Below are positions 154 through 58,178 of a stretch of DNA of 64,000 nt, piece by piece (position 1 is the stretch's first letter; each line of letters opens with the position of its first letter). Below the pieces are notes generated by a model. That model saw only the letters and a list, made by a program, of their open reading frames with translations. It did no database searches and had not been told where the DNA came from. This stretch comes from Antedon mediterranea. Taxonomy: Eukaryota > Animalia > Echinodermata. The translations under genes and the position numbers were made by a program. The stretch covers positions 1,208,201-1,272,200 of the forward strand of contig NC_092679.1 of NCBI RefSeq assembly GCF_964355755.1, read 5' to 3'.

Positions 154-759
154 GAAATCAATCGGACCTATCAAAAACTTCTAAAACAGGTTAGTAGCCT
201 AAGTCATTAAAAATTAGTATTTAGAAATAACGTATTCTATAGAATATAAAATGATAAGATATAAATGGAAAGAAAGAAAATGATATTTGATTTGTCCTAT
301 GTCCATTTAATACATTGCGAAAGAATGGAAGTTGTTTCATTGTCTGGTAGGCCTAGTACATTAGAATAATTGTAGTATTTTATTGTTACAGTCCTCAAGG
401 CTGCTGCTGTTGGGGCAGTTGGAGGAGTAGCTGTGGCTACTGCTGGCCCAGTGCTACTAGGTTTTGGAGCAGCTGGTATTGCAGCCGGTAGCCCAGCAGC
501 AGCAATGATGTCCGCTTCAGCCATAGCAAGTGGTGGTGGTGTAGCAGCTGGTGGTCTGGTGGCTACATTACAGTCGATCGGAGCTGTCGGCTTAAGTGCT
601 CTAGGTACTTTGTTTGCTGGCATTGCCGGCGCCACTGTGGCTGGTGGTACTGCTGCTGCAGTGGCTGTAGCTACTCGAACCACAGGGGCCAATGTGACTG
701 TGACTGCTGGTTCTGTGACTGCTGGTTCTGTGACTGCTGAAAGTAAGAAGAAAATTTAA
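154..759 (+). CDS. IFI27: IFI27/ISG12 (Ifi-6-16 family) protein, copy 1; last two exons (154-189, 392-759), 5' end outside window
   Basis: Family motif [43 protein letters not shown]; 36-nt phase-1 exon and terminal exon both flanked by canonical AG/GT. Confidence 0.85.
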
Positions 760-998: not shown

Positions 999-2905
999 TT
1001 CACATAATACATGCAGGAGAGGATAGAACATTATTGCATAAATTAAGAGATGCGCTAGAGAATGAAGCCAACCCAGATACCAGCTGCCATTTCAGGAGAT
1101 TCTATAGAAAAGGTAATTTTACATAGTTTAATGATTGTGATGTCATGGAAAAAACATTTTCAAATTAATGTTTAGAATTTAAAACACCTTTTCGATCGAA
1201 TACCTGGCTAAAACAATAAACAGACATGTTAGGCCAGTCCAAAGGTGATAGTTGACTATGACTATCACAAACAAACAAATAACAGCGATTAGAGAGATAG
1301 AGAGTACTAAAGTCTAATTAGTGACCTTTCACTTCTTTCAAATTTTGCTATTTAAAAAAATTAATTTTACAACCGGAGTATTCGCCCTATTGTGAGATTC
1401 TGCCTCATGTTGGTGACATTTAAACTTAAAATCTCACAAAAATATTATTAACACTCAAAGTTAATTATTACTAAACAGATACCAACATAGCGCAAACAAT
1501 ATTGAAGGATTTGGAAGATTTTGTTGCTAGCTGCAATGAAAACAAACAGAATAAATGCATGGTGATTGTCAGTGATCGTTTCAATAATGAAATGAATGAA
1601 TCACCCGAACATATCGACAACATTAAAAAATGTAAGTTTTAGAAAGAAGTTGGGTAGCGATATTATAGTCAGGCCTTGTCTTTTTGTCAAATTGCAGGTG
1701 AGTTGCAAATTAAAATCTTGAACATTCACATTTAAGTGTGCCATAAATGCCACACCTCAGGGGCATTTTGCATGAGTGTTAAGAAGGCATCTGATCGCAC
1801 TCCTATGCCTTAAAAGACAAGGCCCGTATATTGTGTGTATTGATGTTCCTAAATGACAAACTATACAGTATTAAAAATAATATTGTCTGTTCGTTCTGTT
1901 TTACGTAATACTCAATATTTTAACATTTCATTCTGTAATATTTCTTATAGTATTGAATGATGTCAATAATACAAACGGGTCATTTGTTCTACTCGTTATG
2001 ACAAACAACAGCATTTTTTCGGAAAACCGTTTTGATAAAATCAAGGTGACATATTATGAAGAAAAGGGAGATGAGGCAGTTGCAAAGGAATCCATTGCCC
2101 TATGGTTTTAGTGAGTAGAATACATTTTGTAGGACAGGAAAGAAAATTTTTGCGAACGTTAAGAGATGCACTACGAATGAAGCCAACCCAGATAACAGGA
2201 TAAATTCACAGCATTTAAATAATATGAAATAATATGATAATACGTCATATTCTCTGTGATCCTTTGTAAAAGCTGCTCTTGACACAGTGTATTAAAAGCC
2301 AATTAACTGCAGTAATAAATTTGAATTCTGCACCTTGCTAAGTTTGGTGCTATGTGAACCAATTTACATTTCAAGCATTATCAAAATTGTATTTATTTAT
2401 TTTTGCATTTCTAATTCGCAGGAAATAAATCAGGCCTATCAGAAACTTCTACAACAGGTTAGTAAATCAATCCGTAAACATTTATTGGAAATAACGTATT
2501 CTACGGTACAAAGAATAGAAAATGTTTATGAAAAGATATTAAATCGAGAGAAATAAAATTTGTCATATGAACATTTAATACATTGTAAAAGAAGTGCAGA
2601 TTGTTGGTGTACGGCTAATTGAAAAATGTCATTGGTAGTACTGTACTATATTACATTAGTAAAATGTTATTTTAACAGTCCTCAAGGCTGCTGGGGTTTT
2701 AGCAGTTGGAGGAATAGCTGTGGCTGCTTTATGCCCAGTGGCACTAGGTTTTAGAGCAGCTGGTAGCCAAGCAGCAGCAATGATGTTGTCCGCTTCAGCC
2801 GTAGCAAGTGGTGGCGGTGTAGCAGCTGGTGGTCTGTGGCTACATCACAGTCGATTGGAGCTGTCGGCTTAAGTGCTGCAGGTGGTGTGGCTGCTGGCAC
2901 CGTGG
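999..2905 (+). pseudogene. Degenerate TIR-like + IFI27 copy: exons 999-1112, 1479-1631, 1951-2110, 2422-2457, 2679-~2905
   Basis: The first three exons splice in frame to a ~140-aa alpha/beta domain. No ATG exon upstream, TAG at 2109-2111, and the IFI27 exon is frameshifted near 2835 (ggtctgtgg vs ggtctggtgg in copy 1). Confidence 0.7.
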
Positions 2906-3522
2906 AAATGAAACTGCCATCTCACGTGAACGATGACGTAGAAATAGAATTAGACCTAAGTGAAGTCTTACATGATCACGTGGGACGCATCCGTTCAAAA
3001 GTGATTTTGCGTTTGCCGTTTCTATAACATTTGTTAATATTTTAAACCCGGTTGTAAATATAACATATCCCTATCCGTTTGTAAATAAAAGATAAGACTT
3101 AACGATTCTATTGATACGTTATAAAAATATAATTTTTTTTTTCTGAAATAAATAAAATAAAGTATAAATAAACAAATATACAATACAATAATATTAAATA
3201 ACTTTAAAATGTAAATTTATTGACACACCTATCTTCTTGGGTGTTTTGATCACAACTTCTTCGTCGCATTTATTTTTTAGCTCACTATGTCAGTCATATA
3301 GCGTGTAGTAAGTAATTATGCAATCATAAAATCGCGTAATCTGAAGGCCTTTATTGTGCGCGCGCGCGTCCGATCTTTCGTGCCGGCCGCGCCATCATGC
3401 CAGCAGTTGGCTCCTCAGCCGATAGCTCTATCCCTAGTGTGACGTGCGCCGCCGGGTTGTTTTAGGTAATAAATATTAATACTATAGGCCTAGTCTGGAA
3501 CAACAAGACACCAACAATAATC

Positions 3523-4243
3523 ATGTCAGGACAACAAGAACTAGCCACTGGTATGTAATTTGAATATACCTCTGCCTTTAGTAGCCTAGAGAAGTAGGAT
3601 TGAGTAACCTATTGTTAATATTATTAGTTATAATATATTATTAAAAAATTTGGATCCTGAAAATTGTTTCCGCCACACAGTTCACATAATACATGCAGGA
3701 GAGGACATAACATTATTGCATAAGTTAAGAGATGCGCTAGAGAATGAAGCCAACCCAGATACCAGCTGCCATTTCAGGAGGTTCTATAGCAAAGGTAATT
3801 TTACATAGTTTAACGATTGTGATGTCATGGGGAAAACATTTAAAAATGTAATTCGATTTTTCAATTCAATTTTATTTTCATAAGATATGCCTACATCATT
3901 TACCATTATGCAAAAACATTTAAGTTAAAAAATCATTTTTAATTTTAGCATTCTGTAATTTCAAATAAGTTGAATTTGTAATTGTGTATTTCTAGTTGTT
4001 TTATAGCCTCTGCCTTATGTTGGTGACATGATGTTTAATCTGTTTTTTAAAAATACTTTATTATTATTACCGTATTATATTAAACTTTAGATACCAACAT
4101 AGCGCAAACAATATTGAAGGATTTGGAGGATTTTGTTGCTAGTTGCAGAGAAAACAAACAGAATAAATGCATGTTCATAATCAGTGACCGTCTCAATGAT
4201 GAATTGAATGAATCGCCCGAACATATCGACAAAATTAAAAAAT
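3523..4243 (+). CDS. TIR-like gene copy, exons 3523-3550 (MSGQQELAT), 3681-3794, 4091-4243; the following TIR-like exon is not found before the next ATG exon
   Basis: ATG exon homologous to 6593-6626; exons 2-3 near-identical to 999-1112 and 1479-1631; all introns phase 1 with GT/AG. Confidence 0.6.
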
Positions 4244-4258: not shown

Positions 4259-4570
4259 ACAAGGCCAACAGCCATTAAGTCGCGTGCTACAATGCATAGT
4301 GATACCGGACCGACAGACAGACCGACAGACAGACCGACCGACCGACATAGTGAACTATACTGACCGAAATTACTGAACATGTTTAAAAATGTTGAAATGT
4401 TTAAAAACATTTATATTTTTAGTCGCGTGGAAGCGACTCTATAGTTCACTATGTCGGTCGGTCGGTCTGTCTGTCTGTCTGTCGGTCTGTTTGTCGGTCT
4501 GTCTGTCTGTCTGTCGGTCCGGTATCACTATGCGTTTTATCGCTTTATGACCTTATCTTGATATCAGTTT
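4259..4570. mobile_element. Two oppositely oriented DINE-1/HINE-like (Helentron-associated) non-autonomous element ends with (GTCK)n microsatellite
   Basis: TTTTTAGTCGCGTG...GCGACT hairpin followed by gtcggtcggtctgtctg; related to 26945-27062 and 28609-28705. Confidence 0.55.
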
Positions 4571-6592: not shown

Positions 6593-8440
6593 ATGCCAGG
6601 ACAACAGGAACTAGCCTCCAGCAGTGGTATGTAATTTAAATATGTCTATGTAATGCCTTTAATATATAGCCTAGCAAAGTAGTATAACCAAAGAATATAT
6701 ATCACAAGAATGAGTATTCCGCGATTTTTGCATGAGAAATTTGTAACAGAGAGCTCCAGAGAGTGATGCCCGCCCTCATAAGGGCGGATGTATACATACT
6801 AAATAAGACTTGATTTAATAGATATTATACATGTAACATTAAATAGAATTATGATAATATATTTTGCAATTGTAAACTATTTTATAATACATATTTATTA
6901 ACAAACTAGTGTACATTCACTTTTACAGACAATTATTTACTAACATGCTAAGTTAGTTCACAAAAAAAGCCTAACACAGCAACACCAAAATCAACGAATC
7001 GTTACTCAGCACGGCCTATTCTTTACCATTGCCGTGTACTACACTCTACGCCCGGTAAATTAAGTATGGTTTTTATGATATAAATTAGTATAAAATACAT
7101 GTTATTAATAGGACAAAATGTTAAATGTCATTAACATTTATTTGTTTTACCAGAAACAAGTTAAATATGGGGAATATTATTCACTATCCTTCGTGAAAAC
7201 GCGTAAACACCAACACGCCCGGTCACGATATCGTAGCGCCCGGTTGATAAAGCAAACTGTTTATACGGCAGATTTTACTAAATAAATTGCATAAAACGAA
7301 CAATTAAATATCCAAATAGTATTTAACATGATGTTGGCATGTAGTTGTAGTTTTTTATCATGAAAATACTACCGGTGGTCTAGCCTTTGATTATTGAAAC
7401 CGTCACAAAAAGTTGTATACATCCCAGATACATCCACACTTATGGCGGCGCCCTACCACATGGACAATATTACTGTTACAGGGAAAATTAAATTAAATCG
7501 CGGATTACTCATTCTTGTGATATATATTCTTTGGTATAACCTAATGCAAAACTATTATTTTTAAAAGCACAGTGCGTGTGCCCAGACGAAGTATTCAAAA
7601 TCAAGTAGTATACGTATGAAACGCCATATATGCCAAAATATTTATCTTTTTACTAATATTAAGACAAAACTCCGTCTGGAACCCAGACTAATTTTAACAG
7701 TAAAATTCAAGAAAACTTTAGGCAATCAAAAGCCAATTAGCTACAGTAATAAAATATAACTCTGCACCTTGCTAAGTTTGGTGCTATGGCAACCAATTTA
7801 CATACATTGCAATCCGCCCCAGTAAGTACGGTAGTAAACAAGTAATTATCAAGACTTTATTTAGGTTTTTAATGTTTTTAAATTCTCAGGAAATCAACGG
7901 GGCCTATCAGAAACTTCTAAAACAGGTTAGTATTAAATCATTAAACATTTAGTAGGCCTATTTAGAAATAACGTATTCTATAGAATAGAAATGTTTATGT
8001 AAAGATATAAATCGAAAGAAAGAAAATTTGTCGTATGAATATTTAATATTGTGAAAGAGTGCAGATTGTTGGTGTATGTCTAATTGATTCACTGGTAGTA
8101 CTAGGCTACTATTACAATAATTAGTGTTATTTCTACAGTCCTCAAGGCTGCTGCTGGGGCAGTTGGAGGAGTAGCTGTGGCTACTGCTGGACCAGCGCTG
8201 CTAGGTTTTGGAGCAGCTGGCATTTCAGCTGGTAGCCAAGCAGCAGGAATGATGTCCTCTGCAGCCACAGCAAGTGGTGGTGGTGTAGCAGTTGGTAGTC
8301 TGGTGGCTACATTACAGTCGATTGGAGCTGTCGGCTTAAGTGCTGCAGGTAATGTGGCTGCTGGCACCGTAGGCGTCATTTTCACTGGTACGGTGGCAAC
8401 AATTAGAGAGAAAGTATTTAAACCACGAAGTAAACTGTAG
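6593..8440 (+). CDS. IFI27: IFI27/ISG12 protein, intact 3-exon copy (6593-6626, 7890-7925, 8139-8440)
   Basis: Splices to [64 protein letters not shown]...LQSIGAVG...KPRSKL*. Confidence 0.85.
6688..7534. mobile_element. Non-autonomous DNA transposon (~850 bp) in IFI27 intron 1
   Basis: ~40-bp TIRs CCAAAGAATATATATCACAAGAATGAGTA(T/A)TCCGCGATTT, subterminal inverted segments (6770-6800 vs 7410-7450), TATAA on both flanks. Confidence 0.8.
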
Positions 8441-10637: not shown

Positions 10638-11990
10638 CTGTGTGTGCCTACCATATTTTGGTTGTTGTTGGGTGTTGTATTATCGTATCAGCTATTGTTA
10701 AGTCTGCTGATGGCCGCGCGCGTATACATAGCAACTCGAGAATAAAGTCCATAATTTATTGTTAAAAAAATGAATCATGTTTATCTTTTCGTCAATAGTA
10801 TCAACAATGATCAAAATGAATACATTTTTTAAATATATTTATTCGATCATTCTTCTAATTAGTTTCTAGGTATTATTGAATCTCTCTTTGAACGTTTATT
10901 TATTGCGCGTAAAACTGGCGCGCGTAATATGTGAACAATGAGCGCAGCTCTTTCTCACTCTCTCTGTGTGTGGTGGTTGATATCAAATATTGTAAATATA
11001 CAGTAATGTTCTTTTGGATCAATGATTAAGTGATTGGTCAAATTACTTGGGTTTTTGCGCTACGTTCCTGAATGCGTGCGCGTGTAGTATGTATATTTAA
11101 TTCACAGCCCCGACCCCAAAAAAGTCCGACTTTTCTTTTAATGGTGAATTGTGTGTTACAAGAGTTCGAAAAAGTGTCGATATCGACACCGAGTTTGAGA
11201 CGAGTTTGATAGACGTGACATCATCATCATTATTACATTTCAGTGAATTTGAAGCCTGTTGATTTAGTGGTTACATGGTGATGTTGGCATACCAATTACT
11301 TATACTTTTGTAATTATTTAAACATTTTTAATTGTGAATCATTGTAAAAAATTAATGAGAAAACTTGCGAATTGCTATAAATAGCCTACTCCCAATTAAC
11401 CAAACATCCAATCAAAACCTGCCATCAGTAGGCGTAATCATGAATAATGCATGATCATAACGTGCTGAATCAACCACACAAATTACGACTGCGCAGTTAT
11501 AATTCTAAAAATAGACAAAAATAATGATGTCATTGTTATTTGGAAGTGTGATTGGATTGCAGAAACGAGGCTAAAATAATAGGAGCTATCGTTTCGGCGC
11601 CATTGAAGCCGTAGGAAGTTGACGAAAACTAGACTTTTAAGCCTGTAAATTCGGATATTTATAAAAATTAAGTAACATTAGAACATACATTTGTTCTTTA
11701 ACAACAACTTGAATTTCAGGAAACAAAGTTTGATTAAGAATAAACTGTAAAATCTAGGAGGATAGGATACCATCACAGTCAATCTATTCTTACGCCTATT
11801 TCGTGAGCCTACTAGCTTCTTGTGTTTATGTGCTAGGCCAGCTGGTTTGGATTTTATATTTTCAACTCATTCAATACATTCCAATTTCGTTTCAACCCAC
11901 GGTATTATTGTAAGTATTATATAGTAAGACAGTATATACTTCTTTCAGAAGAGGAGATATTTTAAGTTTTTAACAGTTCTTCAATACCCT

Positions 11991-14900
11991 ATGCCTCCAT
12001 TTGGTACAGATATTTTAGAGGAGAAATCGGAAATGGAATCGGTAAGTTTGCGTTCGTCAAAATGTTGTGCTGCTTCGTCGCCGAAAACTACCCGGTTGAT
12101 AGCGAGATCGTGTACGCCTGTCGCTGCACCAAGGCCTAAATCAACACCGGCTTCCCCAAAGCATGCTTGTTCTCGGTCATTTTGTAATACATCTTGTTTA
12201 TCAAATTCGCCGGTTTTTCGTCATCGCCAAAAAGAAGTTAAACCTATTAATGTGATCCCCAATATTGTTGGAACTAGACCTAGGCCTATGACTTGTGTCC
12301 GACACAGGCCCATCCAGCCTTGTGAACTCTTTCAAAAATTAACTGAATGGCCAAACACTATTATCATAGACAGTCGTCCATTTACTGAATTTACGAAACG
12401 TCACATCCAAGGTGCATTTAATGTTTTAATGAATCCAATGAGGAGGCGGCGTTTACTGGACGGTAAAATGACGGTTGCGGATATGATAAGTTGTGAAAAG
12501 GGGCGCTTGCAGTTGAAGAATCGTGCGGTACATGAAGTAGTTTTGTACGATGAGGATTCCGACACTTTAGAAAATGCACCAGCTAATAGTGCTGTGAAAT
12601 GTCTTGTAACATCTCTTGAAAAAGAAGGCTCTTTGTCTGTTTTTTTATTAAAAGGTTAGTTTAATACAATTTGTTTTTGTTTCTACGAATAATTAAATCC
12701 ATCTTTATTTAAGTTTACGCAACACAATTATTTTTTTAATCATCTTCCTGAACATTTGCCTCTTTACTATTCAAAAAAGAAAAAATAATGGTAACAAACT
12801 CTATCATCCAGGGACGTTAATATTATTGTAGTTGCTACAGTGTGTTTATTAAATCTAGCCATATGCATTTGTTTACAAATCATCTGATACAGATCCGTCT
12901 TTGGACTTTCCTATCTCTCTCTCTCAACTTAAAAGTTATAAATTACTTCATTTTGTATGCATACAATCGTTATCTAAAGTGCATACGTTGTTAAGCTTTG
13001 CAAAAGATAAACACATTTATGCTGTCCATCTTCATATTCAATAAAATTATTATTACTATATTATTATTAAAAGTAAACATGCACAGATACTATAATTTTC
13101 TATACAGAGTAATTAACTATCTAATCTGTCTATTTACTAATTTACTGTATTTTAGGTGGCATGAAAGAGTTTGAGACGCAGTATCGAGATTTATGTAATA
13201 TTGAAAATGAAGGTAAATCAAATAACTGCGAGAACCCAGACTCCCCCGTCAACACCCCGCTTCTGGAGCAAATAGAGAGCTGTTTCCTAAGGGCTACCAA
13301 AGAAGGGCCGGGCCAACCGTCCCCAATCCTACCGTGCATCTACATCGGCGGGGACAAAGAAGCAGCAGATCTAGACGCCCTTAGGAAGACGAACATTAGT
13401 TACGTTCTCAACATGACCACAAAACTACCAAACTACCATGAGAAAGCATCAGATATTACCTACCTAAGGATACCAGTTAGGGATAACAGCTTTGAAGACA
13501 TCTCAAGATATTTTGAACAAGCTTTTAATTTTATTGGTAAGGAAGTGATTTTATTTTTTCAATTATATCTTTGTAACATTGCAAGTCAATAACTGTTAAA
13601 TTGGTTATAAACCATTTAGTCAGCGATTTAACCTGCCCTTTGAAGACTAAAAAATTGATCAAAATCCGTCTTGATTTAGTTGAAGTTCGGTTTATGAATT
13701 AAAATGATGTCATTTTAAAGTTTTAGCTCGAACTACAACAGTTTTAGCTCGAACTACAACTAGAAGTCCAGTTTAAGAATACGGGCGTATGAGTGGATTC
13801 TAATCCAATCTAGTATTTAATTTCTCTAGTGTTTTTTATTCTCAGAACTCTCCTTTCTTGCGCAGTGAGACGTTCTTAGTAAAGAGCACCTCATAAATAT
13901 TCAAATTATATTTTATTATTCCAATTTAGACATTGAAACTCTAAACTTTAATTGTTAAAATGAAAGGTCCTTGAATACAAGAAAAAAAATAATAAGGAAG
14001 CAATACAATACATTGTAATTATCTTTAAAATAATATTTTAAAACCTGGTTCTTTTTAAATGAGGTAACTTTGTATATTTAGAAGTGTTCAGACCTGGAAC
14101 TTGGCTTTGTGCCAGACAACACAATCCATGTATTGTCTGTTTGTCTGTCTGTCTAGATAAGTCTATAATTATGAATAATAAATACAGTCAGTAATAGGTT
14201 TCAGTTTCTCTTAGTTCTCAAATGGTTGAATATACACTTTTTTGTCCTATTTACTACAGTAGTTTATACAAGGTTTATTTTTAATTCATTACTAATACTA
14301 TTATTTAAACAAAATATTAACTATTGCACTAAATTAAATCATACACTAAGCAAGATTTGCTGTACATTTTGAGGAGTTGTGTCATTGATAGTTGAAATAT
14401 AAGTTTACATTATTTAAAATAAAATTCACACCACACAGGCTTTTTATTTCTTTCTGTAGTAAGTGCATGTTCATCTATAAAAAAAACATTTTTATAAATG
14501 TAATTGATATTTCAAAATTCTCTTCCCTGATAATTAAATCATCGTTAATTGTGCTAATAATACCGCAAAAACCGCAGTCACTAGTTTGCTGATTTCCTCG
14601 CAAATTCAATTAGGCATTTGTGATTAGTGTCCGTATCACTTGGTGATGGTCGTCGTAGTCTAAAATAAAATTGAATATGTCCTTTTCATAAGAATACTTG
14701 GCATCGATAGACAAGCATCAGCTGTTTTACTGACGAATACAGTTAAAATAGATCTGGTGCAAATATGTAGATACGGTAAAAGATATCTACTGTAGAACAG
14801 TCCTATTCTGCTCTATGAGTTTCTTTTAAACATTACAAACCAAATGGTACGGTTTACATACTCAATAACCAATATATTGACAGTGACATATTTGGGTAAT

Positions 14901-16108
14901 TATAATAGGCAGAGTTTTATCCAGGAATTGTTTAAGAAAATGTTAGTGTTTTTTGGATTATGCTTCCAAGTTGGTTCACTTTTTCTTGCTGGGTAATAAT
15001 ATATTGCACTGTGGTTACTTCAGCTAAAACACTTAGTTGTAAAATTGATTTGGACTGTGCATGCTTTTAGTTCCTGTACAGTAATACTGTAATTCTACTT
15101 TGTTTGAATGTACAGAAGTTCCATAACTACTGACAAATAATAGTTTAGTAAACAGTCTTTTGTGCAACATTTTTAGGTCGTCTCAACTGACAAAACAGTG
15201 CAAATATGAACAACTGTGATACAATCTTTTTTTATAGAGTGCTTTTTATGTGTGATGATTGGTTTCTTTCCAGTACAATACATGGCTCAATATATCTGGT
15301 TTTTAATGATGAAAACGATTGTCAAGAAAACTTTGGTTTTGGAAGAGTTTTACTGCGTTTTGTTGAATTCCCACAGAAGCAGAAACTATAAAGTCTACTT
15401 TTTAGTTTTAGTTTTAAATTCAGAAGAAGCATTTAACAAAAATGACAGTTTAGATTTCAAAAGAAGGAAATTGAAGTAATGCTCATGTGATTTGCTAATT
15501 GTTCGTTCCAGCTTTGAATCTTAATAATAACAGGAAGTGTTGTTACAATAACTGCTGTGTCCAGAGGTTTTGTTATGATCCAGAAATAGTTACGTACTGA
15601 TACTGTACACGCATTACAACAATACAGTATATTCAAATGTTTTTTCTGGTACAATTTAAAATACCCCCCATGATGGTATACAGCATATTCACATAATGTG
15701 AATATGCTGTGTGTACCATCATGGGGGGTATTTTAAATTGTATACCATCTTTGATGATTCTTTGTCATTATATTCTGAGCATGCAGTATTATTAACCTAA
15801 TATAATGTTTCTTTTCTTCAGATTTAGCGCTGAAAAACAACTGTGGCATCTTGATTCATTGCCAAGCTGGCATATCCAGATCGCCTACCGTAACCATAGC
15901 TTACATCATGAAGAAGAACCCGCACATGACCATGTCGCAGGCGTACACGCTTGTCAAGAACAGACGAAGCGTCATTTCACCAAACCTTCACTTTGTCGGA
16001 CAGCTTGCCACATTTGAGAATAAATTGAAATCGAGTAGATCAAGTGAACAGAAACGGTGCCCTCTAGTTTCATCGCGGTCCAGTACACCGGTAGAGAGTG
16101 CTGTGTAG
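11991..16108 (+). CDS. DUSP10: Dual-specificity MAP kinase phosphatase, DUSP10/MKP5-like; exons 11991-12654, 13156-13536, 15822-16108
   Basis: Rhodanese domain ([10 protein letters not shown]...HIQGA, KIM MRRRRL, LKGG across the junction); DSP domain with IPVRD and catalytic [21 protein letters not shown]. Confidence 0.88.
15650..15742. repeat. Near-perfect ~45-bp-arm inverted repeat in DUSP intron 2
   Basis: tacaatttaaaataccccccatgatggta-tacagcatattcacat / atgtgaatatgctgtg-tg-taccatcatggggggtattttaaattgta. Confidence 0.9.
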
Positions 16109-23154: not shown

Positions 23155-25851
23155 TTAAACTGATTTTGATGGTAGCGACTGAACAGCTAGAGCGAAGTAC
23201 GTCAACATCACACCAATAACCTGCAACGAATCAAAACAACAACTATGCTTGTTTAAGTTCGAATGACAAAGAAAAGTTGTTTAAGTTTGGTTTACACTAC
23301 AACGCATGGATATACACGCATCGCAATCAATTTGACCAATCACAAGTAGGCCTACGACACGCAAGTAATTTGACCAATCACAAGTAGGCCTACGACACGC
23401 AAGTAATTTGACCAATCACAAGTAGGCCTACGACACGCAAGTAATTTGACCAATCACAAGTAGGCCTACGACACGCAAGTAATTTGACCAATCACAAGTA
23501 GGCCTACGACACGCAAGTAATTTGACCAATCACAAGTAGGCCTACGACACGCAAGTAATTTGACCAATCACAAGTAGGCCTACGACACGCAAGTAATTTT
23601 ACCAATCACAAGAAGTGGGCCTACGACACGCAAGTAATTTGACCAATCACAAGTAGGCCTACGACACGCAAGTAATTTGACCAATCACAAGTAGGCCTAC
23701 GACACGCAAGTAATTTTACCAATCACAAGAAGTGGGCCTACGACACGCAAGTAATTTGACCAATCACAAGTAGGCCTACGACACGCAAGTAATTTGACCA
23801 ATCACAAGTAGGCCTACGACACGCAAGTAATTTTACCAATCACAAGAAGTGGGCCTACGACACGCAAGTAATTTGACCAATCACAAGTACGACACCCAAG
23901 TAATTTGCCTGAACTGTCATCATTCTTGATTGGTCAAACTACATACGTTGCGCGCACGAACGCCGCCTAGTGGAAACCATGCTTTATAAAGCGTGGTTCC
24001 CACTAGAACGTAACGCAAGGACGTAAACGCAACGCAAGCGAATTGACCAATCACAAGCGATGGCTTATTCGCTTGTGATTGCTAACTGTCTATAACTTCG
24101 CTTGTCATTGGTTAAAACGCTTGCGTTGCGTTTACGTCCTTGCGTTACGTTCTAGTGGGAACCAAGCTTTAGTGAACTTACAGTAAGAATGAATCCTTTT
24201 GTTATCGGCATTAAAGTGTATACAGTAAACGCAATGTTTGGTCCGTTGAGTTTTGCCAATAGCATATCCATCTAATAAAATGATTTAAGAATAAACATAT
24301 TACTCCGTACAAGATACTGAAAAGCGGTATGTTGTAGCGTAACAATGTTATACCTACCTCTAAAACGTACTTGTTAGAAGGTTCTGATGGCACAATCGCA
24401 TTGTGTATAAAATGGACAATTTCATGTGCCTATATATAAAATGAAAACGAATAAATTCACTTATTTTTTTATGTATTATTATTATTATACAGTGGTTATT
24501 ACAAAATATTCATAACCCAGGCATTTAAGACTAGAGCTGCCTCGTTAGTGTTGTATCGATCGTGTTGAATCAAGTAAACTTTCCACAGTCGCCGCAAGGT
24601 CTATCGCAGTCGACGGAAAGTTGAATAATGTTCCGTCTACGGCGGCCGTGCTTACGTCTACGCTACCGAGCTGACGTCTACGGCGACCGTGCTTACGTCT
24701 TCAGTTCTCACTGCCTACTTTTTCTACTTTACGTTACATAAAATCTCGCTCTCCTCTGAAAAAGACTGATAATGTGATTGAACAAACACCTTTCGACTTA
24801 CCTGTTCGTGCATCACAGCCGAAAACCACGAAACCGATGCGATCATTGACACCACCGCAGTTGTCCAAATTGTCATCATAGCATACACAAACAATGAAAA
24901 CTGGTTATGTATTAATATTAACTGATACAATAAAAACGTCAACATGGCGATTGTTGTCGAATACTCCATAGCTAGGTAAAGACAGAACATTTGATCAGCT
25001 TTGTACACAGCAATCGCTAAATTCTGGTGCTGGGTTCTTAAGAAGCCGCAGGATTCGACCCAACGTTCTTTTTTCAAGCATTCTATAACTACAAGTCTAA
25101 GATTAATAAATTGCCTCGTAAGTACCTTCGCGATGACAACAAATTCGGCTACAGGAAAGAAATAAGCTAGCGTGTGAAAAGGTATCAGGCTCATTAATGG
25201 AATCTGTGCGTCTTCCGGTAACGGTGCGTAATAGTACAACGTCTCGTTTTTTGTCTCTTCGATCGGTCCAACTCTCGCGATAAATATAATACTCGTGTTC
25301 ACCATCGTTAGTATTATTATAGAACCGATTATAAGCTTGATTGACTTTTGTAATTTAGGTTGGTTGATTCCCAGACCGTATTGAACACTTTGAACGCTTT
25401 GACAGAGTTGGTTCCAGTGGCAGAAGAAGTCTTCTGTGTTGGATGGTTGCAGATCTCGAACGAACCAAATGGTAGCTTTCATCGCGCACTGGAGGAACCA
25501 AGATAACGTGACTATTTGAGCGACAAACACTTCATTTCTAATGTCATTGTGGAGTCCGGACATTGTCCTTATGAAGTTAAACCAGAGAAGAAGTAGAACT
25601 AAAAAAGAGTAGATACGTTGTAGTAAAAGAAGTGACGTGTTCTCTGTCAGACGCACTGGACATCCGATACCGCAACACGTCATCCATTTATACAACAACC
25701 TAAGTTCGTGCTTAAGATTCACTCGTTTATAATGTAGCTTAATGTCATTTGTGAAGTGTGGTTCGACTTCTCCAAAACATATTTTTGCTGAAGGTCTACT
25801 ATTACCCCCACTCGTCACCTCTGGGTGTACTGCTTTCGATATGCTATACAT
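23155..25851 (-). CDS. Gustatory receptor-like (GRL, 7tm_7 family) protein, ~425 aa; exons 25851-24802, 24429-24358, 24271-24182, 23220-23155
   Basis: Multi-TM first exon; three phase-0 C-terminal introns with a 90-bp penultimate exon; TM7 motif GFILT|VIGVMLTYFALAVQ (TY-x-x-L-x-x-Q). Confidence 0.85.
23284..23983. repeat. MITE family A derivative containing a ~15-copy 38-bp tandem array (23331-23905)
   Basis: Unit tttgaccaatcacaagtaggcctacgacacgcaagtaa; outer ends resemble family A TIRs and are flanked by TTA. Confidence 0.85.
23990..24168. mobile_element. MITE family A (179 bp, palindromic)
   Basis: AGC(T/G)TGGTTCCCACTAG...CTAGTGGGAACCAAGCT TIRs; near-identical to 27836-28014 and 35593-35771. 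Confidence 0.9.
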
Positions 25852-26944
25852 TTTGTATGTTTAAGAACAAACTTAAGTCATCATTCATATTAATTGTCAG
25901 ATAAGTTCCCACGTTATGATTTTAGCCATCATCCATTCATCCATCCATATAAAATCTCAGAGCAATGGTGTAATCGTTCTCTAAGACTTTAGCAATTCAT
26001 AGATAATGAAGTCTAAAATTATGCATAATTAAAAATGATAATAAAACCACCGATCAGCATAAGTAAATAAATAAAAGTTAGCACGATCAGTAACGGTATC
26101 AAGACAGCCCACTTCTGCATATTGTGCAAAGCTTATACTGTAGGAGACTAGCTAGGCCAGCAAGAGGCGTCTTCCAGTGCAAGTTATTGTGGGTTGTTAG
26201 CCCACAAGCAACAGAGCTCCAAATGAAAAGATATACAACACATGATTGCAGCATACAACTGATGACGTGTTACGCGCGCACTCATGCCATCCATCAGGAG
26301 TAAAACTGAATTCAATTCGAGAAATAATTGTTAGTAAAACGTTTAAAAAAAACACTACTTTACAAAGTGTATACAATTACACGTCTTTCAACTTTTTAAT
26401 GAATTCGTTTAATTTAATTTAAGAAAAATAACAATTTCGTGTACAAAGGCTCCGTTTAATGGCACCGTAGCATTGATTGTTACCATTGATATATTGGTGT
26501 TTGTGTGTATTGTTGTAGGCCTAAACCTGGCCAGGTGTAAATGAACCACTAATGGACTATCATCATATGTCTGTACGTTGTGACGCCTTTAGCTACTGTA
26601 GTGCATTATTTTATAAATCATTAAATGTTTCAAATGTTTGTTCTTTTTATTGTGTAAATTATGCGTTTTTTTAATTTATTATTTCATTTATAGAAAGAAG
26701 AAATACACAAATATGAGTCATTTCTATTTACTATACGAAGTTTAGTAACTAGAATGATTTATATACAATATTGCGTCCCAGATACAGTACAAGCATTTGT
26801 ATAGTGACGTCACCGTTATTTTGTAAATAAATGTTATTTTGATTGAAGACTTTTGGAAAAATATTGTAAAAATACAATCGCTCAGATTTTGTTTATATCC
26901 ATAACGAAAGCTCGTTTTTTTCTGCACCTGCCAGACTAAAATTG

Positions 26945-27598: not shown

Positions 27599-30500
27599 AT
27601 GTTACTGGTACCACAACAGGCCGCAATCATTCTATTCAATGTCTTTGTGATAACCACTGCAACCGGTAAGTGTATAATTGTTCGAGTTATTTCCACTAAT
27701 AGGCCTACCATGCCTATCATACTTCTTACTCCTTAGTATAGTAAGTAGGCCTATTATGTAGTAGCCCTATTGATTTTGGTCGCCTCATTAATTTTTTCAG
27801 TCAAAATATTTAATATAGCCTCTAGTCGTTGTTTAAGCTTGGTTCCCACTAGCGACGCAACGCAGGGACGTAACGCAACGCAAGTGAATCGACCAATCAC
27901 AAGCGATGGCTTATTCGCTTGTGATTGCTAACTGTCTATAACTTCGCTTGTCATTGGTTAAAACGCTTGCGTTGCGTTTACGTCCTTGCGTGACGTTCTA
28001 GTGGGAAACAAGCTTAAAGACCCAATAAAAACATATATTGTGCATGTAAAGCCTGATACTATACAACTGTTGCGCTCAAAACCTGGTACAGGTAGTTAAT
28101 AGGTAGGCCTATACTACCTAATTATAATTTACATTTCGTATTTACTAATAAAAACATACAAAAATCGTTGTCTTTCTTGAATGAATTATGATGACCTCTG
28201 GGGAAACTAACCCAATACTAACGGAAATAACCTATTCGTTGAAACCTATTGTCTATTGAACTTAATCGGAAATTTTCAAATCAAAAGTTTCCTAAAAATA
28301 ATGAGACTAGAACTAATTTTAGAAATATTTGTCAATGATTATTATATTCAGAATATTTTGAAAACAATGACGACACCTGACATTGGAAAAAAGAGCACAA
28401 TAATTTATTAAAATTAGAGCAAACTCAAGTTTAAATTACAACAAAATAATTATTTATTAATTAACTTATGTAATGATTGTTATGCTTTTCCCCAAAATAT
28501 GCGTTCCTAGAAGACAAACAGATTTACACAATTGTAAATAGCCAAAATGGTTGGATTTGTTGATCTCGTAATAGGCGTAGGTTTTCGTCATCTATAGGCC
28601 TGCATCAAATAACAAGCCATATACATGGCTGCAGTCGCGTGCTCAAATTTGAGTTACCGACCAACCGACCGACATATTGAGCTGTAGAGTCGCGTGACTA
28701 AAAATACTATTCCTAGTTAGGTCTATCATTTAAAAGTCTGTCTTATGATTACAGATGTACTTATTCGACTTGCGGCCAGTGCATCACCAGAAATGGGCCG
28801 TTTAGAGGTCAAAATAAATGGTACTTGGGGGACGGTGTACAGCAGTAACTGGGGTGAACGGGAAGCCCATGTTGTCTGCCGTCAGTTAGGCTACATTGTA
28901 CCAGTCACTCGTAATCCTTTATTGGGTCACTTTGGAAAAGGAATAGGAATGCCAGTGCACATGGCAGGTGTAAAGTGCCACGGGAACGAGAGTAATATCC
29001 TAGACTGTCTGTATAAACGACCAATGGAGGATAGCCATGGAGAAGACGTTGGTGTCATATGTAAACCGAACGAAGCATCTGGTAAGAATTCTGCCACTGA
29101 TATTATTATTATGGCCGACTTCTGTTGTGAACGACAATGTCAGTTAGTCTTGCATTCATCTGAATGATGGTGGAACTTACTAAGCCAGGACCTTTGACTG
29201 GTCATATCATTGACCAAGAGCTTCTCTCGTCCAGTGCCCACCTTAGCCAGAGAAGAGGCATAAGCCGATACGTCTGATACTGCTGCTCATTAAAGATTGG
29301 CCTCATAAGGAGGACAATTGAAAGCTGTGACATATGATAGTTTTTGAGCTAACATCTTAATTAAACAACATTCTCTCTTTTTTCCCTTCCTTTTTTCAAG
29401 ATTATCACGTGAGACTAAGCGATGGTGATTTAGATAATTCTGGAAGAGTCGAAATTTACCTCCGTGGAACTTGGGGGAGCATTTGCGACACCAATTGGAA
29501 CTTGAATGGTGCCACTGTCGTCTGTCGTAACCTTGGCTTTGCTGCTGCTGATGCCTACCATCCAGCTGGCGACGTCGGGGAATCGTCAGAAATCCATCTA
29601 CATGACGTCTTGTGTCAGGGTACAGAGAGCGGTTTACGATACTGTGGACACCAGGTTTACAACGAGACTACGCCGTCGGCTTGTACGGGAGGGCGTAGTG
29701 TAGGAGTGACGTGTCTTCAAAGAAAAGGTAAGTCTAAAAGTGCCTCCGTTGTAGTACCCGTACCCATAATTAAAACACACCGAAACGCCGACAAATGAAT
29801 CAGATTAATCTACTCTATATATCTATCTATCTCTCTTTATTTAGATTTTCAGACTAGGTTGATGGGCAGTAATCAACCAAATGAGGGTAGAATCGAAGTT
29901 CTTCTAGAAGGAGTTTGGTCTCCTGTGCTCAGTAGGAATTGGGAACTGAGAGAAAGTAGCGTTGCTTGCAGGGCGCTAGGCTACGAGACGGCTTATGATG
30001 CTGTGACTGATGGACGCTTTGGTGACGGCCAGAGTGGGTTGGTTTACGGTATGGTAGACGTGGAATGCAAAGGCAAAGAAACCAGTTTGCATGCTTGTAC
30101 TTATAACTTAGAACAGCTTAGCACCATCGGATCAGATAAATACAAAGTCGGCGTGGTGTGTGGAAGCATAAATGCAATTGGTAAGTGGTGTGCCATTTGG
30201 TTTCAGAGAGTACTCTACCGTAAATTTTTACATCGAGTAACTCTTCTGTCGAAAAATACACGAAGTATTACTCAGTAAACCGTTTTCAAGTCTGTGCTTC
30301 TTAGGCCTATTACAACTTTTTAACCCTTTCAACTTTTTATAGATGGAGACGTCCGTCTCGTAGATGGAAAGAATCTTAACGAGGGCCGCCTGGAAATACA
30401 CCATTTTGGGAAATGGGGTTCAATCTGCATGGATGAAGATGGATGGTCGGTAGAAGATGTCACCGTGGCATGTGTACAGCTTGGCTATCCGAGTGGTAAT

Positions 30501-33500
30501 TCCACAATTGAGTCGATTCCAGGACCCAAAGACCAGCCAATTTACCTCAATGACGTAATCTGCTCTGGTAATGAGAAGAGTCTGTCAGATTGCCAGCATG
30601 GTGACTGGGGCATTCATGATTGTAGCCACAAACAGGATGTAGCACTAGCTTGCAATCGCAATAAAGGTACGAAGAAAGTGACAGAGAAGAAAAGAAAAAT
30701 ACTTGAAACATTTTATTAAACCTTCAAGATTTATCAGTTATCCCAGTAGGCCTGCTGTAAACACATTTGTGAAACGAAATGTTGAGATCAAAAGTGCATT
30801 TACCATTAGATTAAAAAAAATGTAATTATTTGTTTCATAGATTTCGACGTCAGACTTGTTGGCGGCGAAGTCGCATCAGAAGGCATAGTCGAGGTTTTTA
30901 TTAACTATGTATGGGACGCTATGTGCTACAAAGACTTGTTGATAAATGATGCGTACGTGGTATGTCGTTCACTAGGATTTAACGCAAGTGAAACTGTTTA
31001 TCTTAGTCCTACACATGTTCCTGAAACGTTTCATAGGATAACACTAAATTGTGTTGAGTCAGATAAGACTATTGAAGAATGTTCCCCAACAGAGGGCGTT
31101 AATCAACTGTGCCACAAACCTGCTAGCATTAGCTGCTCAGCCTACTCTGAAGGTAGTGCAACATTTTGAGAGGTTTTTAAAGTTTGAATATCTTCGTACC
31201 TCCCATTTGCTGAATTATTCTATAAACAGTAGAAATATTCAATCATCTGATTGCATTTTTATATAGACTAATAATGGAGCGAGTTCAGAATCTAATTGAA
31301 TTGTATTTATCCTATCTCACTCCAAAGATGTTTCTCCAAAGATCTTTCCGGGCACCTGTCTTCATTATCATATTGCATTGAATTTTTCCTTACCCCTTTT
31401 TTCAGAGTTTGTAAATAAATGTTTTGATATGAAATGAAAATCTTATGAACATTATACATTGCGGAGTGGTCAGTGTTTTGCCACTACCGTCACTACTATC
31501 ATCTAATATTATTCTCTTTATAGATGGCCAATTCCGTTTACTGGGAGACAAACAACACGAAGGCGTTCCAGGTTCTTTTGAAATTCTTTCATCAAAAACC
31601 GAATTAATTTGTGACGATGATATCACTATTTTCGACAAAAATGTAATTTGTCGAAGTATGGGATATGCTTCTGCCAAAACCAATTACAATTTACCAAAAT
31701 CGATTTCCACAAAAAAGTTTGATAGTGGCTATGGCTGCTTTGTTAAAAACATTGCTTGCAAAGGAACGGAAAGGGATGTCCGAGATTGTCCGAAGCTTTC
31801 CGACGAAATGTCGACAAGTTACGACTTAAAAGCTATGTATACTTTTTGCAACGACTTTACAGGTATTGGTATTAAGTTAATTGTGTTTCTATAGAAATAA
31901 GCCAAGTGACAATCCAGATGTTTTCTTTATAAAATCTACGGTGGCGGATCCAGTGGCGGATCCAGGGGTGAGGGGGGGGGGAGGAGCGCACCCTCCGCAC
32001 GCATCTCCCCCCCCCCTATAAATTATCCTACCATTATGGGAAAAAAAAATCGGGAAAAGAAGCGTAAAAAAGAGTAAAACTTTCACTTTTGATTTAAATA
32101 CATTGTTTTAGCGCCGTGCTAAATTACTTTTTATTAGAGGTCACCATTGCCGATGCTGTAAATTTCTAAGAGTTGCGAAATGAATTGCCTATTTTCACCA
32201 GAAAAATAAACGCATTTTGGTCTCTGGATGTAACATGATATTGACGCGTGTATTGTACCCATACTCGGGCTCGAACGATTCGTACAAAGGACACCGCCAT
32301 ACAACCGCGTAGGTCTACCTATTGTTTCGATCGCTGGCAGTCAGCAAGCATAAATAAAAGTGTATATACGTCAAAAATGGAACGCCGTGGTTACCTACAG
32401 ATCATCATCATAGAGGATTTGTTAATAATAATATCGTAGGCCTACTGTGGTCACTGTGTAGGCCCTACTGTAGTGTACATTATAGCAACCGATTTTTTTT
32501 TCTAGGCCACCCACCCAACTGTATCAATATCTATTTATATATTTAATTTCTTCAACAAATTGATGTAAATAATATTGAGCCATAATAAAAGCATTAAATT
32601 TGCTTCCCCTAGATGGACGTTCGCATTGAACTTGAACGCAATCAAAACTAAATACTGAGTGAATGAAATCGGCAACAAAATGTTATATCGTCCTGTAATT
32701 AGTCACGTGTGTTTATTGGAGGGAATAAGTATGATCGTTTTGCTCATTGGTAGCATGCTGCATTATTATGAGAGTGTCTTTTCCTGCAAATTAGAGGTGC
32801 CATTTATCATGAATTTTATGTGCGAGAGTACTATTTCTTCCGGCCATCGGGTGCGTCATTTAACAAAGTTCTCTTCACCACCACAGGTCCTGTCGACGGC
32901 CTTGGAACAGCACCTTTTCCGCCATGTACGTGCAAACGCTGACTTGCGCGAAACGCCCTGTTGTGACTCTTTACTCAAAATAGGCCTATAGGGAAAATGT
33001 CACTCTTTAATAGGCTAGTACCTCAGTTTTCATATTTAAAATATCAATTTTTAACACAAAATCCTGGATCCGCCCCTGAATATCTGCCAGAATGTGTTTT
33101 CGTATTGAAATTCTATTCCAAATGTACTAATCAACGTTTGACTTCACCTTAAGTAGTAGGAGGATTGATTACATACAACATATCTTTATTTTATGTATTC
33201 ACTAAAGCTCTGTCTACACTATCAAACTTTATGCGACAAAAAAAATGAGATGTGTCCATATATGGATTATGATGATGTCATATCACTACCATATTTGGGC
33301 ACATCACCTACGTCACCAGTACTAGAGATCAAACTTAATCGTCTGCTTTTGCTTACTTCATTGACAGAGCATTCCGTTCGGCTGATTAGTCCTGCGTCGT
33401 CACTGGAAGGTAGGTTTGAGATCTACCATGAAGGTCAATGGGGAACTGTTTGTCGTTCGCCGTCCTGGTCATACAACGAGGACGCCGTCGTCTGTCGTTC

Positions 33501-34441
33501 ACTTGGTCTAGGACCGCCTTCTCACAACAGTAGTGCGGGATTGAAACATTTGAGAGGACGCGGACCAATACATTTGAGTGACGTCAGTTGTATTGGGTCG
33601 GAGAGCACTCTAGCAGAATGTAAACACAGTGATTGGGGAATCAATAAGTGTGTACACACCGATGATATTATGATCGAATGTTCAGGTAATTCAGTCAACT
33701 TTATCAATCCTTGAAAAAATATATAATATTTAAATTAGAAAAGTAAAAATGGAATGTATTGTGTACAGTTTTTTATGTCATCATTATCGACAATTATCAA
33801 TGTTGTCATCATTGTTATCAATCACAGTGTCATCTATTTATTGCATTCTCTCCTTGTTTATTAGTCTTCCCATCATTACGGGGCGCCATTCGGAATTATG
33901 TCAACATAATTTAACAGTGTCCAGAAGGCGCCTCATATACCACTCATTTCATATCCACGACTCGCATAATACCAATTTAATAATGTCTAAATTGTTTTCA
34001 GCTTCGCCTCCGAATGCTTGCGGTCATTCTTTATGTAAAGACGATGAGACTTGTCAACTAGGACCTTCATTGAATCTATTTTGTCAATCAGGTAGGCCTA
34101 GGTTACTTAATTGAATACTAAACAAAACACAACAGTATAACAGGACCACAATGTAAAACAAAACAGTAAAATAGAATACACATGTCGTACTACTTTGATA
34201 TTGTTATCTCTTTTTTTCAGCAGAAGATGGCGGTGGAATTCACCTAGTGTTTCTATTCCCTATCTTAGTCTTCTTTCTTATTGTAGCAGTTTATATAACA
34301 ATTCGATTGTGTCATTCTTTACCGGTTCAACCACACAAAGACTGTGTTCGCTATTTCAGAAGGTGTTGTCGAAAAAAAGGATCTAATTATCGGATAGTAC
34401 TCACCGGTGATGAGGTTATTTTAGTTGAAAATGAATCGTGA
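27599..34441 (+). CDS. Scavenger receptor cysteine-rich (DMBT1-like) type-I membrane protein: signal exon 27599-27665, 7 SRCR exons (28755-29081, 29401-29727, 29845-30180, 30343-30666, 30841-31152, 31524-31862, 33368-33685), Cys-rich exon 34002-34091, TM/tail exon 34221-34441
   Basis: Repeated VRL...EGRxEI...WG(T/S)xC...VVCRxLG...CxGxExxLxxC motifs, one domain per phase-1 exon; hydrophobic TM segment. Confidence 0.88.
27836..28014. mobile_element. MITE family A copy
   Basis: 179-bp palindromic element with TTA/TAA flanks. Confidence 0.9.
28609..28705 (-). mobile_element. Short DINE-1/HINE-like element
   Basis: Terminal hairpin AGCCAT-ATAC-ATGGCT, subTIR AGTCGCGTG, ccgacc microsatellite, A/T-run end. 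Confidence 0.6.
31939..33078. mobile_element. Non-autonomous DNA transposon (hAT-like CAG termini) in SRCR intron
   Basis: CAGTGGCGGATCCAGG (31951, with a partial duplicate at 31939) vs CCTGGATCCGCCCCTG (ends 33078); flanks aaaatcta/aatatctg resemble a decayed 8-bp TSD. Confidence 0.65.
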
Positions 34442-34943: not shown

Positions 34944-37900
34944 ATGGAGCCGATTGAATCACGATTTATGTTTTTAATTTTTAATGTCTGCCTTTATACC
35001 ACAAGTAAGATTTATATATTTTTATACTATTTCGTAATAAATGTATATCTTATGTTTTCGTAAATTTTTATTTATTTATTTTTTTTTTATTTATTCTTTT
35101 TTATTTATTCAACTTCTCACTAACACTGTTAGTGAAGGATCGGGACCAACAGGTGGTAAACACCTCTAAAAATGGTCAAGTGGCTGTGTGTGACAGTGGC
35201 TGTGGTTGTATGGTCTAGTACACCGTCTCGAAAGATGTACTAGGTTCTTTAAAGTGCACATGAGCTATGTGTACACTGGACATACGGTTTATAGTCCTTA
35301 TAAATACGAATTTGTAAAGCGCCAATTCCAGTAACAAGTGATCAAAGGCGCTGTGGACTAAGGTGTTACACTCTTTCAACAACATTCTTCTCCCTTAATG
35401 GTCCCATCGTGTCATCGGTAGCCAACTACGGCGCCATTACGTCTGTCCACGACAGTGGCTGTGTGTGAACTAGTACACCGGGGTAACCCCCTACTCGTCT
35501 AGAAAGATGTACCAGGTTCTTTAAAGTGCACATGAGTTAGATGTGTACACTGGACGGTTAAGGTTTATAGTCCTTACGGTTCCACTGTCTTAAGCTTGGT
35601 TCCCACTAGCGACGCAACACAAGGACGTAACGCAACGCAAGTGAATTGACCAATCAAAAGCGATGGCTTATTCGCTTGTGATTGCTAACTGTCTATAACT
35701 TCGCTTTTCATTGGTTAAAACGCTTGCGCTGCGTTTACGTCCTTGCGCTACGTTCTAGTGGGAACCAAGCTTTAACCGCTCGGCCACTCACTCACTCACA
35801 ATTGATTGATTATTGTAATAGTTAAAGATACATTTGTAATATTGTTTGTTTGTGGTTTGTAAGGTCATATTATGTAGTAAGACTTTCGACGAGTAACGTA
35901 CTAATATAATAATAAATGTACTTTCATGCTTCGACCGTCCTTAGATAACTGATAAAGAAAGAACATGCTTTAGTTAAAATGTTAATTCAAATACTGTATT
36001 TCGTACGGCCCACTTTTATTAATAGAATGCTAGTGGCAATACTAAAAGAAAAACAAAATAAATAAATGAAGAGTAACAAGTTATTTACTTTCTTTTGTGT
36101 TGAGTCTATTAGTTTAAAGGCCAGGTGTGGGCAAAACATTTCTATTGATCATACATTCCAATAATTATCGATCTATAGTTTCCCCTATGTTTCATAATTT
36201 TTGGGATTTTATTTGTGTTACACGAGCTTGTTGAAAATATTTGATTTATGTACAATTAACCAAATATTATATTTAAAATTCATGCCTGTACCTGAGCTTT
36301 TAAGTATACCCTTTTAAGTATACCCTTTTTCTTGTATTGTATTTTTATGTATCTTCATACATTCATTCATTTTACAAATATTTTGATCTTAAAATAAAAG
36401 TTCAGCTTAAAATGTGAAGTAATTTACTTAGACACAAACATTTTTTATTTAAAAAAAATATAATTTATGAGGGATATTTATAAATTAACAATATATATAT
36501 ATAACTATTCGTTATTACTTCCAGTAGGATTTACCTTCGCTTCAGCAAATCATTCCAATTCAAAAGAGGTATGTATATTTTAATGCTTATTCCGAACCTA
36601 ATAAATAATTGTATTACTGAACAATGGTACAGAACTACCTGTATTTGTGAAATGTACACTAACTTTACATATTTTAATATTTACACAATAGACTGCTGAG
36701 AAAGCTGCGGGTATTGATTTTAGCTGTCATGTTTCTCAATCCAAGACTCAACCTAAATCAGGTAATATGTGGGTGAAAGGTCATGTTTATTAAAGGCACT
36801 GTATCATTGTACTCTGCTTATCATGTTGAGGTACTGGCTTATAAACAATAAATTAAAAACACAGAGCTACGCTTTAAACAAATACATTAATTAACACTTC
36901 TTGCATACGTTGTAATTATACAACATAGATTGCATCCCAGTTTTTGTCCAAATCGTCCTACATGCAACTTGTAACAAGAATATTTAATAGCATAAAACTT
37001 AGGTTTAGTTAACTTACATTTGAAAACAACCACCTACAGTAACTGCATAAACAAAAATCAAGTCAAGGTGGGCACTGGACGAGAGAAGCCCTTCATCAAT
37101 GTTAGGACCGATAAAGGTGCTTTAAACAGTCCTGGATTTGTATCAAACCTGTTAGTAGCGGTAATTATCGCTGTTGGTTTCGATTGAATAAAATTTTAAA
37201 AATATACCTATTTCAGTTCACAGACTTACACCCGGAGATATTCAAGTTGTTGCAGCGCTTGGAGATTCTATCACGGTAATTGAATGAAACAATATGAAAT
37301 AATAATAATAATAATAATTATATATATATAATAATTAATCTTTATGTTACTGAATATATACTCGCAATATAATATCATCGGTCACAGGACGCAAGTATCA
37401 TTATAATGATCACTTTTGTTTGTAGACTGGTGTTGGAATAGACGCATCTTATATTACAGTTGACACGTCAGGCCATGCGTTTTCGTAAGTTTTTAAAAAC
37501 ATCAGATTAATTTAATTTCAACTTAAGTTCAACAAAAAGTAAAATTATTTTTATATAACGTTTTATTTTTTCTCCAAGGATTGGTGGCAGTGATTCTTTG
37601 ACGAAAATGACGACACTTCCATGTAAGTTTACAATTCTTTTCAATTGTTTTTTTATACAATTCAAGTATCGAACCATTTCTAAGTCATATTATTTTTGTT
37701 TTAAAGCTATATTAAAAATGTACAATGGCAATCTGTATGGCTACTCAAATGGATCACGTGATTTAAATGTTGCATTCATCGGAGCTGAATCACAGTAAGT
37801 GAATAACATTAATGTTTGTCAGAATCCCTCTTTATCTAAGTTTATCAATTTGAGAATAATTATTTCAATTTAATAATTATATTTGCATAAATACAATTTT

Positions 37901-46856: not shown

Positions 46857-47003
46857 TATGTACAGTTATTATGAAAAATATAAATGCCGCCCTCTATTTA
46901 TCATAATCATTGTTTACCTTCTGAACCGATATCGAGGTACGTGCATTTCAACAGGCACCGGCTTCATTGTTTTCGAAGTTTAGTTATTAAATACTGGAAC
47001 AAA

Positions 47004-58178
<11,175 letters not shown>

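Follow-up and report, generated by a model that had tools for sequence, protein, structure and literature searches.

Can a TIR-like domain and the membrane module of the IFI27/ISG12 family be parts of one gene, and what would such a protein do? The question is raised by a locus of the feather star Antedon mediterranea, an echinoderm, that lies at the start of the window analyzed here, a 64,000-nucleotide (nt) stretch of AT-rich animal DNA (GCF_964355755.1, NC_092679.1, positions 1,208,201-1,272,200, forward strand). An earlier note, made from the DNA letters, had proposed that three exons at 999-2111 encode a TIR- or SEFIR-like domain fused to an IFI27 module. Within its first 8.5 kb, the window has a tandem array of four units, all on the + strand; their building blocks are an ATG exon, the domain exons A to C, a linker exon of 36 nt, and an exon for IFI27. 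Both parts of the fusion are of known kinds, their combination was not found in the papers searched, and the gene is present in RefSeq but unnamed.

Domain exons and the predicted gene

The three exons in question belong to copy 2 of the array: exon A (999..1112, 114 nt; first strand, first helix, and second strand of the domain), exon B (1479..1631, 153 nt), and exon C (1951..2111). All three have AG acceptors and start in phase 1, and A and B are followed by GT donors. Their spliced chain is free of stops, exons A and B recur in the array, and all three match a RefSeq protein, so the claim that they are real exons holds. They are indeed absent from the open reading frame track, yet they are not unannotated, since a RefSeq model includes them and ends the protein at the TAG of exon C.

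A search with exon B returned a single protein at 100% identity, XP_071962577.1 of A. mediterranea. Its cluster has two members of 349 and 426 residues, both labelled 'uncharacterized', and both isoforms hold the order domain-IFI27-domain. The longer one, XP_071962576.1, starts with an ATG exon and a first copy of the domain (residues 10-156), followed by a linker, the IFI27 module, and the copy 2 domain. The first domain copy is encoded upstream of the window, where domain exons for copy 1 had been expected. The chain 154-189, 392-742, 999-1112, 1479-1631, and 1951-2111 contains no stop, and its translation is exactly residues 157-426. It starts with the phase-1 linker exon of copy 1 (154..189; AG/GT borders, 100% match to residues 157-167) and continues into the intact IFI27/ISG12 exon of copy 1 (392..759), which has its own stop at 757-759. 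The RefSeq splice into exon A leaves this IFI27 exon at a donor inside it (742/743), and the copy 2 domain thus lies C-terminal to IFI27. Judging by the gene model, the domain-IFI27 splice of copy 1 is probably transcribed; that copy 2 is used C-terminally, by way of the 742-to-999 splice, is moderately probable.

The identity of the IFI27 module is clear. Pfam Ifi-6-16 (PF06140, cut-off 29.1 bits) matches copies 1 and 4 with 68.8 and 70.4 bits (E 3.9e-19 and 1.2e-19), the broken IFI27 exon of copy 2 stays below the cut-off at 19.9 bits, the structure 2loq (IFI27L1) in the PDB matches the module with E 1.7e-10, and hydropathy is 1.0-1.8 in most windows over residues 166-260.

The postulated intact gene that reads from the domain into IFI27 is therefore predicted by RefSeq for copy 1 (ATG exon, domain, 36-nt exon, IFI27), but not for copy 2, which cannot encode this order because its exon C donor and the next IFI27 exon are both broken. 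As had been noticed, the GTGAGT donor of exon C is one base out of phase, creating the TAG at 2109-2111. At this point copy 1 in XP_071962576.1 reads on in frame (IAIWC-R), as does the Anneissia homologue described below (LDIWF-K), and copy 2 reads IALWF-stop; the two in-frame read-throughs support a one-base gain at the copy 2 donor. The extra T may be either a real mutation or an assembly error. The linker exon of copy 2 (2422..2457) is followed by an IFI27 pseudo-exon (2679..2907, end approximate) with a 12-nt deletion, a 3-nt insertion, and a 1-nt deletion that shifts the frame near 2836. The ATG exon at 3523, given in the earlier note as that of the family, belongs to copy 3, and an intact ATG exon is absent before copy 2. 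At 850-900, TAATC-ATG followed by TTTAGTAGCCTA resembles, in a weak alignment, the ATG exon and intron start of copy 3 and may be what is left of the copy 2 ATG exon.

The domain exons carry a record of coding. Between copies 2 and 3, 109/114 nt of exon A and 139/153 nt of exon B are identical. Over the 87 codons of A and B, dS (synonymous divergence) is 0.21 and dN (nonsynonymous divergence) 0.051, a ratio of 0.24 (one-sided Fisher p 0.006; a simple Nei-Gojobori count on a small sample, with the constraint not assignable to one branch). Purifying selection has acted between the domain copies, and these exons therefore had coding status in the past. Exon C (1951-2108) differs more: its identity between copies 1 and 2 is 51%, compared with about 80% in A and B. 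This may reflect gene conversion of A and B or faster change in C.

Fold and origin of the domain

A phmmer search over 1.84 billion representative sequences gave five matches, including the Antedon protein itself, XP_033124816.1 of another crinoid, Anneissia japonica (E 2e-28), and Patiria miniata XP_038073871.1 (E 4.5e-5). Two repeat-rich matches were rejected as chance. An alignment of 146 columns puts the copy 2 domain at 49% identity to the second of the two N-terminal domains in the Anneissia protein, with no significant likeness to the first; against domain 1 of the Patiria protein it obtains a Smith-Waterman score of 86, compared with a maximum of 44 in 300 shuffles. Both proteins carry a pair of related domains at the N-terminus; a long low-complexity linker follows, and the C-terminus gives a weak Death match (E 0.034 in Anneissia and 0.009 in Patiria, both under the cut-off). 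Two TIR-like domains followed by a Death-like one are the reverse of the MyD88 order, and both proteins are uncharacterized. An Antedon orthologue of this complete tandem protein was not found by sequence searches. The domain module was probably shuffled as exons from an echinoderm tandem-TIR/Death adaptor gene into the IFI27 array; exon shuffling is the simplest origin, because a phase-1 exon module enters or leaves a phase-1 intron without breaking the frame.

In the TIR/STIR fold, five helices alternate with five strands, which run parallel (PMC7075850; this and the other papers given by PMC number are cited from extracts). The AlphaFold model of the Antedon domain (pLDDT, the model's confidence measure, 61) is an alpha/beta domain in which strands and helices alternate, consistent with the five-fold pattern previously read from the peptide. 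In a Foldseek search with this model, a TIR domain ranked first (E 0.03, TM 0.46-0.51), and further TIR rows appeared at ranks 4, 6, 8, 20, 36, 49, and 50. For Patiria domain 1, a scan of 24,736 Pfam families (E up to 10) yields a single match, the bacterial family TIR_2 (E 2.4e-4, 22 bits, positions 1-108 of 122 in the profile, under the cut-off); the copy 2 domain matches the same profile over its residues 1-48 with E 0.13 and 13.2 bits, below the cut-off of 28. By hhalign, six domains align collinearly with 28 bacterial TIR_2 domains; the alignment has 66 columns, runs from the first strand to the third, and scores 24.3 (maximum 14.0 in 30 column shuffles). In ESM features, the ten best family-bearing matches of XP_038073871.1 residues 12-350 share the TIR family or clan with scores of 0.86-0.90, which on the tool's own scale are only a lead; the Antedon domain obtained no TIR assignment from these features. 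The Patiria homologue and the first Foldseek rank make TIR the likeliest superfamily, and we consider it likely that the domain belongs there, probably as a degenerate member. The kinship to SEFIR or TIR_3 that had also been suggested was not borne out: neither SEFIR (PF08357) nor TIR_3 gave a row for any of the seven members in Pfam at E up to 10, and one feature row for the Patiria domain pair carries SEFIR jointly with TIR_2.

IHIIHAGED, the stretch that the earlier note gave as VHIIHAGED and likened to Box 1, falls in register with the first strand of the 28 TIR_2 references and the acidic residue after it; it is a degenerate form of the box, lacking the Phe and Ser. The Box 2 or BB-loop motif RDxxPG is absent in the Antedon copies, which have RRFY(R/S)KD instead; among the domains compared, the BB-loop Pro-Gly occurs only in Patiria domain 1 (RNFRPG). 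Since some TIR groups do without Box 2 (PMC7075850), its absence in Antedon lowers the case for a Toll-like receptor/MyD88-type domain, not for superfamily membership.

The Glu of the WCxxE motif, in the region of the third helix, is catalytic in the NAD-cleaving (NADase) TIR domains of SARM1, plants, and bacteria. As stated before, the Antedon domain has no WCxxE, Trp-Cys being absent. In the hhalign register, the position of the catalytic Glu is occupied by Asn in copy 2, Lys in the other two Antedon copies, and Glu in Patiria domain 1 and Anneissia domain 2. A Glu is present 12 residues after the third-strand Ser in the domain, a spacing that is 12-13 in 18/19 references. Taken together, these residues lean against a catalytic NADase Glu.

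Remaining units of the array

A decayed extra copy of exon A adjoins the end of exon C (2112..2198; over 81 nt it matches each of the two exon A copies at 80%, with a 3-nt insertion and a 1-nt deletion). The TTTTAG that holds the exon C stop sits at its would-be acceptor. This copy is more diverged, and it may record an older tandem arrangement of domains or a deletion between units.

Copy 3 includes only an ATG exon (3523..3550, phase 1, resembling the XP_071962576.1 N-terminus) and open exons A (3681..3794) and B (4091..4243), with no exon C; if exon B is joined to the next 36-nt linker exon, codon 99 is a stop. Directly behind exon B lies a fold-back element (4288-4539) whose arms measure 60 nt. 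Copy 4 has an ATG exon (6593..6626; 73% identity over 98 nt to the copy 3 ATG exon region), a 36-nt linker exon (7890..7925), and an intact IFI27 exon with an open frame (8139..8440), which together encode a plain 123-residue IFI27 without the TIR-like domain. This may be either the ancestral state or the result of losing the domain module. The first intron of copy 4 holds an 849-nt element with 41-nt terminal inverted repeats (6687-7535); by their structure, both elements are likely non-autonomous transposons.

Proposed action and alternatives

The explanation that we tentatively favor is a shuffled, degenerate TIR domain whose predicted fusion to IFI27 acts as a membrane-tethered, non-enzymatic TIR decoy or tether. 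Compared with its parent, the domain would be without the Death-like output and would have acquired a hydrophobic module, whose helices would hold the fusion on an inner membrane. Without the parent's Death domain, the fusion might, with somewhat less assurance, bind the parent adaptor or its TIR partners and not pass the signal on. This action appears the likeliest in view of related proteins. Human IFI27 is found in association with the mitochondrial membrane; described as likely pro-apoptotic and as perturbing the permeability of that membrane, it also dampens RIG-I-like receptor signaling (PMC11486742). Shrimp IFI6-16 has antiviral activity and a link to caspases (PMC9144789), and the Death-less STIR adaptor CIKS2 of amphioxus inhibits MyD88 (PMC11087794). 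Several points weigh against the proposal. Direct structural comparison does not clearly favor TIR over other folds of the flavodoxin-like kind, a Thr-Asn...Ser-Asp segment of the domain aligns to the third helix and fourth strand of vWA over 47 columns, and the IFI27 exons (dN/dS 1.1-1.6 on few changes) lack the visible constraint that a membrane part with a conserved role should have.

The alternative that survives best, although we regard it as rather unlikely, is a decaying array in which copy 2 is a non-functional remnant, the RefSeq order domain-IFI27-domain merges two units, and at most copies 1 (domain-IFI27, about 289 residues) and 4 are live. The defects around copy 2 (no intact ATG exon, out-of-phase donor, exon A remnant, and frameshifted IFI27 exon) are in line with it, as are the missing exon C of copy 3 and its lack of an in-frame join to the next linker exon. 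A merger of units is also suggested by the own stop of the copy 1 IFI27 exon and by polyA-like hexamers at 763, 773, and 823. However, exons A, B, and C of copy 2 are still open and their acceptors intact, the low dN/dS ratio between copies 2 and 3 (with the same reservation as to branch) speaks for constraint, and the 742-to-999 splice is used in both RefSeq isoforms. Alternative isoforms at NCBI are built from transcript alignments.

Less likely again is a TIR-gated effector, in which the domain self-assembles or joins an assembly of the parent adaptor and clusters the IFI27 helices, with membrane perturbation or apoptosis as the outcome. The replacement of the Death-like output domain by a membrane module, the effects of human IFI27 and shrimp IFI6-16 mentioned above, and the presence of one domain on each side of IFI27 in the RefSeq model fit this scheme, but all three Antedon copies lack the BB-loop Pro-Gly of signaling TIRs and the IFI27 exons are not visibly constrained. 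A more specific version, a one-chain immune switch in which the flanking TIR-like domains join an echinoderm TIR-TIR-Death adaptor assembly, cluster IFI27, and perturb an organelle membrane, is a shade more doubtful; if true, it would be the first direct physical link between TIR signaling and the ISG12 family and a handle on the function of the IFI27 helices.

The hallmarks of vWA domains are DxSxS, the metal-binding MIDAS motif, behind the first strand and a beta-hairpin ahead of the third helix. A real fusion carrying a non-TIR alpha/beta interaction domain, vWA-like or of another flavodoxin-like fold, and thus outside the TIR system, is the least probable reading: the vWA likeness is confined to the one segment, the domain has HAGED after its first strand and no hairpin in the model, only ~35 residues separate the first strand from the segment matching the third helix, the Thr and Asp are not retained in the Anneissia and Patiria domains, and Pfam gives vWA matches for 0/7 members scanned and TIR_2 for 2/7. 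The TIR match, by contrast, starts at the first strand and is collinear from there on, and the alignment of TIR chains covers most of their length (112/132).

Significance of the locus

The TIR-like/IFI27 combination was not found in the literature searched, at the level of listings, nor in other species by sequence search, and the term 'Ifi' is absent from the main text of two surveys of invertebrate TIR or immune architectures (PMC8662601, PMC2575513). IFI27/ISG12 proteins are known as small single-domain proteins whose molecular action is poorly settled, and a natural fusion suggests that they can act in or on invertebrate TIR signaling. The locus offers a built-in comparison of the fused copy 1 with the plain copy 4, and its phase-1 array shows exon shuffling in progress. 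It also points to an unstudied tandem-TIR/Death adaptor of echinoderms, a group reported to be without the adaptor CIKS (PMC11087794). The case covers one species and a partly decayed array, with the fusion predicted from the genome and a gene model.

Other features of the window

Several further genes are tentatively named here from their open reading frames. Three similar, alternative-looking first coding exons (46884-47261, 47758-48069, and 49256-49669, all +) belong to one gene, which we take to be glycogen phosphorylase-like, also from bacterial matches of a later exon. Other open reading frames presumably encode a dual-specificity mitogen-activated protein kinase phosphatase (11928-16108), a seven-helix gustatory-receptor-like protein (24724-25860, - strand), a multi-SRCR protein (28721-33714), and a phospholipase B1-like protein (37559-46009).

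Comparison with known systems

The Antedon fusion shares with the IFI27/ISG12 (FAM14) family a clear Ifi-6-16 domain (E 4e-19), a Gly/Ala-rich hydrophobic stretch, and tandem copies. It differs in adding one or two globular domains of 142-147 residues, whereas human IFI27 is a single-domain protein of 122 residues (PMC11486742). Further traits looked for in members of the family are induction by virus or interferon-like signals and a location on mitochondrial or ER membranes. Bacterial TIR_2 (PF13676) is the closest sequence profile (E 2.4e-4 for Patiria domain 1, 0.13 for the copy 2 domain) and provides the top Foldseek rows; however, the scores are under the curated cut-off, Trp-Cys-x-x-Glu is absent, and the third helix region is longer in the Antedon domain. 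Among the TIR adaptors and Death-less regulators (MyD88, TIRAP, CIKS/Act1, and amphioxus CIKS2), the fusion resembles CIKS2 in having a probable STIR-fold domain without an output domain (PMC11087794), but its domain has no family-level sequence match to any of them, its Box 2 is degenerate, and its anchor is an IFI27 module. Compared with the echinoderm tandem TIR-like/Death-like protein, the Antedon fusion lacks the first domain, the linker, and the Death-like domain, and carries IFI27 in their place.
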